Assembly: GCA_020434565.1 (NCBI GenBank)
Contig: JAGRAO010000005.1
Coordinates: 1-38,526 of the forward strand
Reading direction: 5' to 3'
DNA: 38,526 bases
From: Bdellovibrionales bacterium
GTDB lineage: Bacteria; Bdellovibrionota_C; UBA2361; RFPC01
Shown here one piece after another: positions 15,089-18,301 of the stretch. Numbering within the stretch: position 1 is the first letter of the stretch; every line of letters starts with the position of its first letter. Made by a program: the position numbers and the translations under genes. The notes beneath the pieces are model-generated. The model made no database searches, was not told the DNA's origin, and saw nothing but the letters and a program-made list of their open reading frames with translations.

Positions 15089-15189
15089 AGTACTTTTTGA
15101 AACCTCAATGATCGAAGGTAGCTCACCTTTCCGCAGGCTTGCCCCTACGCAAAGCGCTAGAAAAACCCGATCCTATTTGGCAGCACATC

Positions 15190-15531
15190 CTATTTGGCTG
15201 TACACCGGAGCCCATCAAGGTCCTCCTCGCCAAGCGAAACGGTTTCTTCTTCATTTATCTTGATAAATTCTTTGAAATCTTCTGGAACAGCGGAGTCCTC
15301 ATAAATCGCCTCGACGGGACACTCGGTCTCACACGCACCGCAGTTAATGCATTCGTCGGGGTGAATGACGAGCAGACCAACCGTCTCATCCCCGTCATCT
15401 CCAGAGATCTCGACCCCGTACTGGCTGTTATATTTTTTCTTCCGGATATCGTAGAAACAGTCCACCGGACACACTTCGACACAAGAACGATCCTTGGTTC
15501 CGAGGCACGGTTTTGTAATCACGTAAGTCAT
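15190..15531 (-). CDS. fdxA: 7Fe-type ferredoxin ([3Fe-4S][4Fe-4S], FdxA-like)
   Basis: MTYVITKPC....SCVEVCPVDCFY...IHPDECINCGACETECPVEAI matches Azotobacter/Thermus 7Fe ferredoxin cysteine spacing. ATG 15529-15531 with AAGGAG 8 nt upstream. Confidence 0.8.
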   Translation of the reverse strand: MTYVITKPCLGTKDRSCVEVCPVDCFYDIRKKKYNSQYGVEISGDDGDETVGLLVIHPDECINCGACETECPVEAIYEDSAVPEDFKEFIKINEEETVSLGEEDLDGLRCTAK

Positions 15532-15684
15532 TGCCGACACTCCTTCGTGTAGAGAGCGTCGATACTACGACAGGAGGTCTGGCTTGAAAACCGGTCGGAA
15601 GCGCTGTTCACGGAAACTTTTTGTCGAAAGATCTAGGAAAAATTCCTGGACGGTACTCTGTATCGGGGCAACCGCTTTAACGGC

Positions 15685-15722
15685 AAAAAAAAGAGGCGAT
15701 TCAAGTGTCTTGAATCGCCCCC
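15685..15722 (-). terminator. Rho-independent terminator on minus strand (11-bp stem GGCGATTCAAG/CTTGAATCGCC followed by U8 on minus strand)
   Basis: On the plus strand: A8 then a perfect 11-bp inverted repeat with loop TGT. This gives hairpin plus U-tract on the minus strand, upstream of the fdx promoter. Confidence 0.6.
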
Positions 15723-15956
15723 AACTCGCAGAAAGGATGGTGTCATGCCTACTACATACAACATCGACGGTTTTTCTCTTTCTTTTAGAATTGGACGCTC
15801 CGAAGTAAAAATAAATTTACTGGTTTTTTCAGGGGGTTACTAAGCGTTTTGCCTCTTTTTCTCTTTGCCTGCTCATTCCATTCCCCAACCTACCAACCCC
15901 CACACAAGTTGCTAAGACTGCTCTACCTTCGCTATAACTCCCTTCTTTTCCCTTGC

Positions 15957-16030
15957 GGCCCGATCGCCAAGATGGCTAAGGCAATGGTTTGCAAAACCAT
16001 TATTCGCCGGTTCGAATCCGGCTCGGGCCT
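15957..16030 (+). tRNA. tRNA-Cys(GCA): tRNA-Cys (anticodon GCA)
   Basis: Acceptor GGCCCGA/TCGGGCC. Anticodon arm ATGGT-TTGCAAA-ACCAT with U33-GCA-A37. T-arm GCCGG-TTCGAAT-CCGGC. Discriminator U. No encoded CCA. T6 tract immediately 3'. Confidence 0.9.
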
Positions 16031-16086
16031 TTTTTGACCTTTCTTCTCGATCACAAATACGGGGAACCTTTGGGCAGTCTTAAACG

Positions 16087-16225
16087 AGAGTTCCCAGGGG
16101 CGCGAGCCGGATTCGAACAGAAAATGCTGCGAATCCGCCAAGCGATGGAACATCGCTTATTCGCTCGGGCCTTTTTTGACCTTCTGCAATGAGTTTCCTC
16201 CTTTGTTAAGTCTGTGGAAGAAGCC
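16087..16225 (+). repeat. Copy 1 of tandem ~135-bp tRNA-like structured repeat (87-bp core 16098-16184)
   Basis: The core is identical to 16398-16484 except 1 nt. It contains two perfect hairpins (CGGATTCG-N14-CGAATCCG; AGCGATG-GAA-CATCGCT) closed by an acceptor-like stem (GGCGCGA.../...TCGGGCC). It ends in the same 21 nt GCTCGGGCCTTTTTTGACCTT as the tRNA-Cys 3' end and tail. Confidence 0.7.
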
Positions 16226-16389
16226 GAACGGAGAAGACGCCGTCACGAGAAGTCGTGTAGCGTGCGATATCGAGGAGACCGACGGAGGGAGCGCGCAAGC
16301 AGCCTAGAGAGGCTACTGAGCACTCCCGACGAGGTTCGACGACGAGAGTGTGCGCTACACGAACTTCGGAGTAGGTGGATACTCCGAGA

Positions 16390-16525
16390 GGGTTCTTGGG
16401 CGCGAGCCGGATTCGAACAGAAAATGCTGCGAATCCGTCAAGCGATGGAACATCGCTTATTCGCTCGGGCCTTTTTTGACCTTCCCACAAATAGATTCCT
16501 TCTTTGTTAGGTCTTTGGGAGAGAG
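16390..16525 (+). repeat. Copy 2 of the tandem tRNA-like structured repeat (period 300 bp)
   Basis: See copy 1. The downstream 40 bp (ttcct(c/t)ctttgtta(a/g)gtct...) are also conserved with a few mismatches. Confidence 0.7.
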
Positions 16526-16633
16526 GTGATGCTTCGAAAGGATTCGCGGGCCTTGCGCAATCCCTGTCCTCGTCCTGCTCAAGCGCTCTCTGACCGCAGA
16601 GTTGCATTTTTGAGATTGCTTCTAGAACCGAGC

Positions 16634-18301
16634 TCAATTCGAACCTGATTTATCATCTTCCATAAGAGCTCGAATGGCCTTAAAGGCCTGTGTCTGAATC
16701 TGACGAATCCGCTCACGCGAAAGCGGTTTACTATCAAGGGGGCTCTGAACTCCCATACCGAATAGATACGCAGCAGTTTCATCAAGAGTGAACTCTCTAT
16801 CTTGATTGTTCAGGCCAAACCGGAGTCGCAATACAAGTTGAGGTATCGGCTCAAGTTGATCGAGATAGTGGCGCATTTCAATACCAATTAACCGCCGTTC
16901 TTCAGACAACCGAGAACCTTCAAACGCTTCCCGACCATCCAAGAGACTAAAGGTCTCATTTGACTCAGATCCCGGCTGCTCTTCGCTCAGAATTCTCGAG
17001 GCCGCAGCTCCACGCAATTGAGCCACATGGCGAGCAGTCAATCGAAAAGAGGTTCCCTTGCCGACTTTCTCCTTCTTTTTCTCCAGTTCTCGAGAAGCTT
17101 GAACGATCTGCTGGTCAGTCGGATCCCGTTCTCCTTGCATTTCCAAGTATGCGATCGCCCCACGTATCTTCCCCATAATGAGGTACGCATGGCGTGGCAC
17201 TCTCACGAGCGAAGCTTCATCTGATACACAGTTTCCGACTTCTTTGCGAATCCATTGTGTCGCCATAGTGGAAAATTTGTATCCTTTTTCTGGGATAAAC
17301 TGCCGTACTGCCTCTACCAGCCCTCCATTTCCAGCAATGATGAGGTCAATCAACGGCACACCGCGATCGGCATATCTCTTTGCGATTGAAACAACGAGAC
17401 GCAAGTTTGACTCGGCGAACTCTTCTACAAATGGCTCGATTCTCCGTTCAAGCGAATTCAGTTGGCGCATAAGCCGTTTGAATTCATTTGGCTCGATGCC
17501 GTTCATAGCTTTCCATTGAACAAAGCCCGCTAAGAGGGCTCGGCCTTCTCGCGCACCTTCTTCAGAAAGTTCGGCAAAGACCTCTACCTCTCCCCTCTGA
17601 ACTCGCTCAAGACCTTTTGAAAATGTTGCACGAGAGATATGAGCCCTTTTACAAAAAAGATTCCGTCGTTCATCGAGTTCTTTCAGCGCGCGAAGTGCGC
17701 TATCGGCGATATTTCGACAACTTCGAAATTCCGAGTAGGTCATCAAGCTCCCGAGGTCAGGATCCATCATGATCTCTTTCTCACGTTTGGGAGAAAACCG
17801 AGTGCGATAGTCGGGCTCGAGAGCACCGGTCGGGCAAGCAAGAGTGACCTCAATTCCTTTCGTTTTCTCAAATTCACGCTTTTGAACAGAGTAGCGACGT
17901 TCGACTAATTCCCGGGCCTGCGGGGTAAGTGGTCTCCGCCCCGCTGCCGGATGAAGTAACTCGTGAAGAGCTGGTAAGTATCGGAGCATCAGCTGATGCT
18001 GTTGAAATGTTATCTGTCGAATCCTCGCTCCCAAGCGGAGCTCATCTTGGCGAGTGAGAAGGGGTCGTGACCCCGAAATTCTCGTCAGATCTCGAATAAA
18101 GGCCTGAAATTCACCTTCATATCCTGACTTTGGCGGAACAAGTGCTTCGAATTCATTATTTTCGGGATTTCTCTCCGCACGAGCAGGCAGCCTCGCACTT
18201 CCGAAGATCTGGGCTGCTGATTGTTGTGTGCCGTTTAAGTGCGGCCCCTTTTCTATCATTCTTTCTCGACAAAAGGGGCTGAATACGGCCCCGCTCCCCA
18301 T
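16634..18301 (-). CDS. RNA polymerase sigma-70 family factor (RpoD-like: long N-terminal region, regions 2, 3 and 4)
   Basis: Region 2: NLRLVVSIAKRYADRGVPLIDLIIAGNGGLVEAVRQF...GYKFSTMATQWIRKEV. Region 4: LSRERIRQIQTQAFKAIR. ATG at 18299-18301. Confidence 0.8.
   Translation of the reverse strand: MGSGAVFSPFCRERMIEKGPHLNGTQQSAAQIFGSARLPARAERNPENNEFEALVPPKSGYEGEFQAFIRDLTRISGSRPLLTRQDELRLGARIRQITFQQHQLMLRYLPALHELLHPAAGRRPLTPQARELVERRYSVQKREFEKTKGIEVTLACPTGALEPDYRTRFSPKREKEIMMDPDLGSLMTYSEFRSCRNIADSALRALKELDERRNLFCKRAHISRATFSKGLERVQRGEVEVFAELSEEGAREGRALLAGFVQWKAMNGIEPNEFKRLMRQLNSLERRIEPFVEEFAESNLRLVVSIAKRYADRGVPLIDLIIAGNGGLVEAVRQFIPEKGYKFSTMATQWIRKEVGNCVSDEASLVRVPRHAYLIMGKIRGAIAYLEMQGERDPTDQQIVQASRELEKKKEKVGKGTSFRLTARHVAQLRGAAASRILSEEQPGSESNETFSLLDGREAFEGSRLSEERRLIGIEMRHYLDQLEPIPQLVLRLRFGLNNQDREFTLDETAAYLFGMGVQSPLDSKPLSRERIRQIQTQAFKAIRALMEDDKSGSN

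Follow-up and report, generated by a model that had tools for sequence, protein, structure and literature searches.

The stretch of DNA analysed here (the window) comprises 38,526 nucleotides of contig JAGRAO010000005.1 from a Bdellovibrionales bacterium and carries a tRNA-Cys(GCA) gene followed on the same strand by two near-identical tandem units. Each unit is built around pieces of the tRNA gene, with an inverted and a direct copy of its 3′ end that are predicted to pair and enclose internal hairpins. Comparative sequence analysis demonstrates this architecture, its exclusive linkage to tRNA-Cys among related bacteria, arms that change with the local tRNA, and a design like that of the RtT repeats of E. 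coli. With moderate confidence, we interpret the units as RtT-like, tRNA-Cys-linked trailer modules that act in cis on the tRNA-Cys transcript, through either termination or processing.

Two tandem units behind tRNA-Cys

A repeat search of the window located a direct repeat (16085-16184 and 16385-16484) with a period of 300 nt, within which each unit has a sharply bounded core of 87 nt (16098-16184 and 16398-16484). The two cores have one mismatch, C or T at 16138/16438, which falls at an unpaired linker position, and these are the only two copies in the 38.5-kb window. Together with the ARAGORN call of the tRNA gene, these results bear out an earlier note on this DNA, which had described two near-identical repeats downstream of tRNA-Cys(GCA) with a period of 300 and an 87-bp core differing by 1 nt. 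The ~135-bp unit of that description is explained by similarity of ~82% that runs ~34 nt past the core (16187-16221 versus 16489-16522) before the copies diverge, a level that none of 500 shuffles reaches. This flank has six mismatches and one gap in 34 nt, compared with the one difference in 87 nt of the core. The spacers upstream of the units measure 67 and 213 nt.

The repeat layout is not an assembly artefact, because independent contigs break inside the repeats, as a real repeat would cause. An ENA contig (L011) is 100% identical to window positions 15176-16136 and ends inside core 1, and a Logan contig (L002) begins at 16454, 31 nt inside core 2.

Each core opens with an inverted copy of the last 20 nt of the tRNA, continues with an A-rich loop and then a direct copy of tRNA nt 56-72 that is split by a perfect 8-bp hairpin, and runs into U6. 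The first 20 nt of the core agree with the reverse complement of the tRNA-Cys 3′ end at 19 of 20 positions, so the reverse-complement tRNA segment noted earlier is real. The 21-mer GCTCGGGCCTTTTTTGACCTT, made up of 9 nt of tRNA, the discriminator and 11 nt of trailer, occurs exactly three times, at 16021, 16163 and 16463, where the chance expectation is 0; as had been claimed, the end of the tRNA-Cys gene and both copies have it in common. The accompanying T-run was also correctly seen, and is more precisely the discriminator plus five T.

Each core is predicted to fold into a three-way junction at -37 kcal/mol (z about -4 to -5). The closing stem, P1, consists of 9 bp with one G.G mismatch, forms between the inverted copy and the direct acceptor strand, and lies immediately 5′ of T6. 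P2 is an 8-bp stem that pairs CGGATTCG with CGAATCCG, and P3, hereafter also hairpin 2, is a perfect 8-bp hairpin with a GAA loop. The acceptor-like closing stem and two perfect hairpins of the earlier description therefore stand, with the closing stem corrected to the length given here and the second hairpin stem to 8 bp from 7. A further hairpin upstream of each copy (16062-16095 and 16367-16386) is recovered by folding, again in agreement with that description. The parts of the locus are as follows.

15957-16030, + strand: tRNA-Cys(GCA) gene (ARAGORN; Rfam RF00005, 62.2 bits)
16098-16184, + strand: unit 1 core, from repeats, fold (-37.1 kcal/mol, z -4.1) and arms aligned to the tRNA 3′ end
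16099-16107, + strand: unit 1 P1 5′ strand, GGCGCGAGC
16108-16115, + strand: unit 1 P2 5′ strand, CGGATTCG
16116-16129, + strand: unit 1 A-rich loop
16130-16137, + strand: unit 1 P2 3′ strand, CGAATCCG
16138-16139, + strand: unit 1 linker
16140-16158, + strand: unit 1 hairpin 2 (P3)
16159-16162, + strand: unit 1 second linker
16163-16171, + strand: unit 1 P1 3′ strand, GCTCGGGCC
16172-16177, + strand: unit 1 T6 run, followed by GACCTTC at 16178-16184
16398-16484, + strand: unit 2 core, with parts as in unit 1 shifted by 300 nt and T for C at 16438
16399-16407 and 16463-16471, + strand: unit 2 P1 5′ and 3′ strands
16408-16415 and 16430-16437, + strand: unit 2 P2 5′ and 3′ strands
16440-16458, + strand: unit 2 P3
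16472-16477, + strand: unit 2 T6 run

The tRNA-Cys gene is the sole tRNA gene in the window according to both ARAGORN and Rfam. It does not encode CCA, and its discriminator T at 16030 opens a T6 run of its own (16030-16035).

Three checks proposed in the earlier note spoke against a known Rfam family, a pseudo-tRNA and a dispersed family. An Rfam scan of 15800-16700, at gathering thresholds and at E<=10, matched only the tRNA, and the RtT model RF00391 was not matched. A pseudo-tRNA is rejected, as ARAGORN makes no call on the cores with default or relaxed settings (-ps, -ps80, -ps70) and the Rfam tRNA model matches 15957-16030 only. The idea of tRNA-sized structured RNAs thus survives in part: the structure is real and conserved in relatives, but likeness to a tRNA does not extend beyond the closing stem. 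A dispersed repeat, such as a repetitive extragenic palindromic sequence or a miniature inverted-repeat transposable element, is likewise rejected, with the search of the source genome confined to the window. Neither the GTDB genomes, taken at one per species, nor IMG/VR viral contigs contain the core pattern, two matches in JGI metagenomes are chance occurrences in unrelated high-GC contigs, and the copies in relatives are all linked to tRNA-Cys.

Three further candidates were set aside. A small protein on the minus strand was considered in view of a Shine-Dalgarno-like AAGGAGG at 16197-16203; the frames after the two copies differ by one base, the open reading frames (ORFs) are not conserved, and the 143-aa ORF at 16206-16637 has no Pfam match. 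A hammerhead-type junction is not supported, since the junction strands of 0, 2 and 4 nt contain no conserved core and Rfam gives no match. Finally, in the window TTATTCGC ahead of TCGGGCC matches the tRNA variable region and the body of 73 nt equals the length of a tRNA, as if the unit were a tRNA copy with its T-arm deleted. At the position of TTATTCGC, relatives carry different linkers, and insertion of a hairpin into the direct copy at nt 63/64 is the better account for all genomes.

Modules in related genomes

The sigma-factor gene beyond the repeats is an orphan, so the ferredoxin gene on the other side of tRNA-Cys served as the synteny anchor for a scan of relatives, with one genome per species. 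The ferredoxin/tRNA-Cys arrangement was found at ~31 loci, all in metagenome-assembled genomes of Bdellovibrionota/Oligoflexia, and the closest relatives have 81-83% ferredoxin identity. Comparison with related tRNA-Cys loci, which the earlier note had recommended, revealed the same module design at 11 of the ~31 (the window, L012, L013, L016, L025, L026, L031, L032, L033, L041 and L042). Each of these loci has one to three tandem modules just downstream of tRNA-Cys and on its strand. An nhmmer profile search of ~390 kb gave a concordant picture, with all significant matches directly downstream of tRNA-Cys on the same strand.

The arms follow the tRNA of the genome in which they reside. The direct copies all reproduce nt 56/57-72 of the tRNA-Cys in their own genome without a mismatch, and the inverted copies correspond to the reverse complement of tRNA nt 52/53-72 with one to three mismatches. 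Both copies track the tRNA variants of their lineage, such as TTCGAAT versus TTCAAAT and CCGGC versus CCGGG, and each unit then carries the trailer found after its tRNA. Among 15 units for which the 8-nt tail was read, 13 have a U-rich tail; the units of L016 end in CCA.

Internal parts of the module are retained in different ways. In the relatives nearer to the window (L012, L013, L016 and L041), hairpin 2 interrupts the direct copy at nt 63/64, and across these loci and the window it is represented by six unrelated sequences, all perfectly paired. The A-rich apical loop can be aligned across genomes, with a consensus near AAAA.AA.ACTG before the direct copy, whereas the flanks do not align. 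In a structural alignment (A4), 87.9% of cells are paired, compared with 74.6% for column shuffles (0 of 500 reach the observed value), although this alignment was made by hand with N as gap and was fitted to the structure, especially at P3. Slid controls of the same alignment are 24-45% paired, and 13 of its 27 pairs change on both sides. A hand-made alignment was used because MAFFT misaligns hairpin 2 when applied to whole units.

Some copies appear to be decaying, namely L013 unit 2, a copy in L015 and window positions 16628-16645. In L025, the first 150 nt past tRNA-Cys (+1 to +150) contain about seven tandem copies of a ~19-nt motif, CTCAGCGCTGTGTTTCTCG, ahead of a single unit, and this motif resembles the hairpin-2/trailer sequence of L012.

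Possible function and origin of the modules

A cis function of the modules on the tRNA-Cys transcript is what we infer from the modelled folds and the layout of the locus. In both units the G+C-rich P1 (9 bp, 1 mismatch) abuts T6, the tails read across the family are mostly U-rich, and the units are convergent with the sigma-factor gene, which we count in favour of a role in termination. The units thereby resemble intrinsic terminators, in which a U-run comes at once after a G+C-rich stem. However, intrinsic terminators have a short loop, whereas the stem in the window closes a three-way junction of ~55 nt. No simple terminator hairpin with a 3-8-nt loop is found, and a consensus terminator scan calls no unit because the stem closes a three-way junction.

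The action of the modules might proceed as follows. A scan found no promoter-like site between tRNA-Cys and the cores, and the modules would therefore depend for transcription on read-through of the tRNA's own weak stop, formed by the acceptor stem and U6, and would belong to the 3′ external spacer of tRNA-Cys. Each unit would then fold into a closed three-way junction with its acceptor-like stem abutting U6, and the units could serve as a series of fallback stops before transcription reaches the convergent sigma-factor gene. The acceptor-like end may also be open to cutting by tRNA-processing enzymes. In the predicted minimum free energy fold of the tRNA, trailer and unit 1 (15957-16180), the 3′ strand of the tRNA pairs with the inverted copy and its 5′ acceptor strand pairs with the direct copy of unit 1, a domain swap that would disrupt the T-arm. 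An effect in cis on tRNA-Cys maturation is conceivable, because the inverted copy captures the tRNA 3′ strand in this predicted read-through fold.

Several observations weigh against a cis-acting module, beyond the hand-fitting of the alignment described above. A stem closed around ~55 nt does not have the form of a canonical terminator. Unit 1 of L013 and unit 2 of L012 lack P1, so termination cannot be the universal role of the modules, and about two thirds of the related tRNA-Cys loci have no modules, which makes them dispensable. Sense and antisense folds differ by a mean of only 0.2 kcal/mol, and few G.U pairs occur, about one of them in the hairpin-2 cells. Since the strands fold equally well and G.U pairs are scarce, nothing shows selection on an RNA strand as opposed to a DNA palindrome. 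In addition, the near-identity of the window cores could reflect gene conversion rather than selection.

Transcripts containing the units might instead act in trans, if the trailer and unit were released from the 3′ external transcribed spacer (3′ETS) of tRNA-Cys and served as a regulator, sponge or decoy. In such an RNA, function could reside in the CU-rich tracts, in the A-rich loop, which is conserved, or in the 20-nt stretch of complementarity to the 3′ end of tRNA-Cys. Conservation of the loop and stems would fit this role, as would the CU-rich tract resembling an anti-Shine-Dalgarno sequence in all three trailers of the window, with similar tracts in L012 and L013, and the capacity of the inverted copy to capture the tRNA 3′ strand in the predicted read-through fold. 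Precedents exist in rtT RNA (PMC3318445) and the 3′ETS-leuZ sponge (bioRxiv 10.1101/2021.04.25.441314). However, the region between tRNA-Cys and the cores has no promoter-like site, trailers are poorly conserved between genomes, most relatives lack modules, and no strand asymmetry is seen. We therefore consider a trans-acting small RNA rather unlikely.

A wider proposal, to which we give tentative and limited credence, is that the modules are a conserved functional element of Bdellovibrionota rather than a by-product. They might serve either as a structured 3′ETS RNA, involved in tRNA-Cys maturation or acting in trans by means of the 20-nt anti-tRNA arm, the A-rich loop and the CU-rich trailers, or as a folded-DNA mimic of the 3′ end of the tRNA gene.

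DNA-level processes have evidently left their marks on the modules. The inverted copy reaches 3-4 nt past what the direct copy can pair, as if it had been copied from the tRNA itself, and copies within a genome are nearly identical while those of different genomes are very different. Strand-symmetric folds, an overhanging arm and homogeneity within genomes are marks of template switching, unequal crossing-over and gene conversion, and template switching is reported to create and maintain perfect hairpins (PMC8794818, PMC7202029). Given these marks, the contrast between core and flank cannot be read alone as purifying selection. On the reading that we favour, the modules would have begun as a local duplication of the tRNA 3′ end and its trailer, to which template switching during replication would have added the inverted arm and perfect hairpins. 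Unequal crossing-over would have changed the copy number, and gene conversion with the tRNA gene would keep the copies within a genome identical.

In the extreme, the units would be a functionless by-product of such events, that is, neutral quasi-palindromes subject to turnover and kept uniform with the tRNA through conversion, on the premise that tRNA genes are hotspots for template switching and slippage. The perfect Watson-Crick stems, the equal folding of both strands, the patchy distribution with zero to three copies, the decaying copies and the excess length of the inverted copy over its partner, which copying from the tRNA would explain, are all compatible with this account. Yet the loop and architecture are kept across genomes with 60-83% ferredoxin identity and non-aligning flanks, hairpin 2 stays at one position through six sequence replacements, and E. 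coli has the same design, through independent origin or persistence. The conserved loop, the retention of hairpin 2 through sequence replacement and the recurrence of the rule in E. coli are reasons to think that the design is kept up and not left over as debris, and we judge a pure by-product unlikely.

Nested att-like remnants of past integration were the other explanation offered in the earlier note. Attachment (att) repeats of integrases resemble the units in being direct copies of a tRNA 3′ end downstream of an intact gene, and the same tRNA-Cys is a target of integrative and conjugative elements (ICEs) in relatives. A tyrosine integrase together with type IV secretion system (VirB/Trb) genes directly follows tRNA-Cys in L004/L022, and homologous integrases follow it in L023, L026 and the JGI contig Ga0556162_0000041. 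In L026 the integrase comes after the last unit, and repeated integration is known to leave arrays of partial tRNAs as its signature (bioRxiv 10.1101/2020.12.28.424599).

Real att copies of this lineage nevertheless differ from the units. They flank kilobases of island DNA, and the one that separates two tandem elements at tRNA-Cys in Ga0556162_0000041 (L092/L094) is a plain 42-nt partial tRNA, from anticodon loop to discriminator, with no inverted arm, no A-rich loop and no match to the unit profile. The window units keep tRNA nt 56-72 only and are 142 and 300 nt apart. A tblastn search of the window with the L004 integrase yields only matches with E>1, consistent with the earlier observation that no integrase remains there. 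At least eight genomes carry units without an integrase within ~3.5 kb, the trailers of the arrays are chromosomal and common to integrase-bearing L026 and integrase-free L033, and the 21-mer is absent from viral contigs. Because real att copies lack the inverted arm and loop, units occur without integrases, and L026 and L033 have the same trailers, we reject att scars as the origin of the units. It is accordingly very improbable that the units stem from site-specific integration of ICEs or islands at tRNA-Cys, whether as remnants or as secondary sites. As a practical warning, short repeats of a tRNA 3′ end beside the tRNA gene are not always integration scars.

Some observations on these integrative elements deserve mention in their own right. 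The tRNA-Cys gene is a hotspot for a tyrosine integrase family associated with the ICE genes VirB3/4/8, TrbL and TraG, and the attL arms of tRNA-Cys ICEs contain two direct ATCCG(N)AAAT repeats (loci L004 7766-9134, L023, L026 and L092/L094). In L026, at least two or three units separate tRNA-Cys from a frameshifted integrase (+1 to +480, locus 3441 to ~2960). Within the trailer of its last unit the sequence becomes ICE-like, and a 100-nt run of N masks part of the array. This arrangement does not fit integration at the anticodon loop.

A related idea is that the units are folded single-stranded DNA recombination sites, like integron attC sites or the attP hairpin of CTX phage. The hairpin would rebuild a duplex identical to the 3′ end of the tRNA gene, with hairpin 2 as an extrahelical marker. 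Such a site would account for structure that is kept while sequence is replaced, for perfect Watson-Crick stems and for a duplex equal to tRNA gene nt 56-72, and an ICE does abut a unit in L026. However, there is no dedicated recombinase close to the units, they have no ORF cassettes between them, and the known local att copies are ordinary duplex sites. Inspection by eye, with no formal attC model run, found no R″/L″-L′/R′ consensus. We regard this explanation as extremely improbable.

Surrounding features and comparison with known systems

The sequences between and around the units include the following features.

15190-15531, - strand: 7Fe-type ferredoxin gene, on one side of tRNA-Cys
16031-16097, + strand: trailer A, with the rest of the T-run, GACCTT, a CU-rich tract (16038-16048) and a hairpin (16062-16095), from sequence and fold
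16185-16397, + strand: spacer B, with a CU-rich tract (16194-16205) and a hairpin (16367-16386) upstream of unit 2
16485-16633, + strand: trailer C, with a CU-rich tract (16495-16506), reaching the stop codon of the convergent sigma-factor gene
16628-16645, + strand: candidate third inverted copy of the tRNA T-arm/acceptor strand, degenerate (15 of 18 complementary), suggested weakly by the repeat search
16634-18301, - strand: sigma-70-family gene

The first 12 nt of trailer A are the only part that it has in common with the other two trailers. The CU-rich tracts of the three trailers, CCTTTCTTCTC (16038-16048), TTTCCTCCTTTG (16194-16205) and ATTCCTTCTTTG (16495-16506), resemble an anti-Shine-Dalgarno sequence, and comparable tracts are present in the trailers of L012 and L013. 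Spacer B as a whole has a predicted fold of -92.3 kcal/mol (z -4.9) and is largely filled by a long imperfect hairpin of ~120 nt (~16249-16368). A multi-hairpin segment is repeated upstream of each unit in L013. The degenerate inverted copy lies 228 nt past unit 2 and overlaps the sigma-factor stop codon.

On the other side of tRNA-Cys and the repeats is the convergent sigma-70-family gene of 555 aa, followed by xseB and xseA. Only region 2 and part of region 4 are recognisable in its product, and the N-terminal ~290 aa are unique. Among 5.8 billion proteins there is no close relative of this product except an identical copy on a Logan contig, and no homologue adjoins tRNA-Cys in the relatives.

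Between the ferredoxin gene and tRNA-Cys lies an invariant 27-nt sequence, CTCGCAGAAAGGATGGTGTCATGCCTA, found at 25 loci (window 15684-15751, L003, L004, L012-L017, L020-L026, L029-L034, L039, L043 and L055). It always adjoins a hairpin with covarying sequence and an A8/T8 run. Read on the ferredoxin-sense (minus) strand, the site could encode an RNA of ~70 nt that begins 5′-UAGGCAUGACACCAUCCUUUCUGCGAGUUG and continues with the hairpin and U8, and a TATA-like box is located just upstream. The site has no Rfam match. On these sequence features it is a candidate small RNA, or a candidate leader or attenuator of the ferredoxin gene.

The closest precedent for the units is RtT, which both explanations in the earlier note overlooked. 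RtT, or rttR, the 178-bp repeats of the E. coli tyrT-tyrV operon, has been in the literature since the late 1970s to early 1990s and is regarded as an enterobacterial curiosity without an established function. We compared the tyrT region of E. coli (NC_000913) with the window. The tyrT region contains four RF00391 units (133-137 bits) with a period of 178 nt. Each opens with a 22-nt inverted copy of the T-arm/acceptor strand, 86% complementary, and ends in AAUCCUUCCCCCACCACCA, the tRNA-Tyr 3′ end from within the T-loop, followed by the tRNA's own trailer.

The two systems correspond in several respects. Both consist of tandem units immediately downstream of a tRNA gene and on its strand, and in both the unit ends with a direct copy of the tRNA 3′ end that starts inside the T-loop and passes into the tRNA trailer. 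The inverted and direct copies pair into a closing helix around internal hairpins, which for RtT is seen in the covariance model alignment and in inverted-repeat pairs. Even the distance from the tRNA to the inverted copy is alike, at 67 nt in E. coli and 69 nt in the window. The differences are equally clear. There is no sequence similarity, and the window units lack the annotated tpr-like ORF of RtT. They follow tRNA-Cys in Bdellovibrionota instead of tRNA-Tyr in Enterobacteria, the body measures 73-87 nt in Bdellovibrionota units compared with 130 nt, and the window units end in the discriminator and U6 rather than in CCA. Judged by their sequences, the units are a non-homologous variant of the RtT type of tRNA-linked repeat and form a family across a phylum.

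Other systems resemble the units less closely. The 3′ETS-leuZ of glyW-cysT-leuZ is similarly a structured RNA between the last tRNA and the terminator, and its function as a small RNA sponge has been shown experimentally (bioRxiv 10.1101/2021.04.25.441314). Unlike the window units, however, it is unrepeated and is not built from inverted and direct copies derived from a tRNA. Hairpins produced by template switching, or quasipalindromes, have perfect Watson-Crick arms that are kept identical, with one arm longer than its partner (PMC8794818, PMC7202029), as do the units. Template switching is a mutational mechanism and not a family of elements, and for the units it is a proposed source of the arms and hairpins.

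The same construction rule now appears behind another tRNA, in a distant phylum and in many genomes, which suggests a general process or function and turns RtT from a one-off into a recurring design. If the modules are a conserved functional element, they and E. coli RtT would together define a general unrecognised class of tRNA 3′-end palindromic modules with a shared mechanism. For RtT itself, PMC3318445, citing Bosl and Kersten 1991, describes the rtT RNA as processed from the tyrT transcript. This RNA may modulate the stringent response by a mode of action that is unknown (PMC3318445; bioRxiv 10.1101/2024.07.17.603846). The Bdellovibrionota modules offer a second, comparative system, in which loci with zero to three copies, with or without the closing stem and with or without hairpin 2, can be used to study the effects of such modules on tRNA transcription and maturation.

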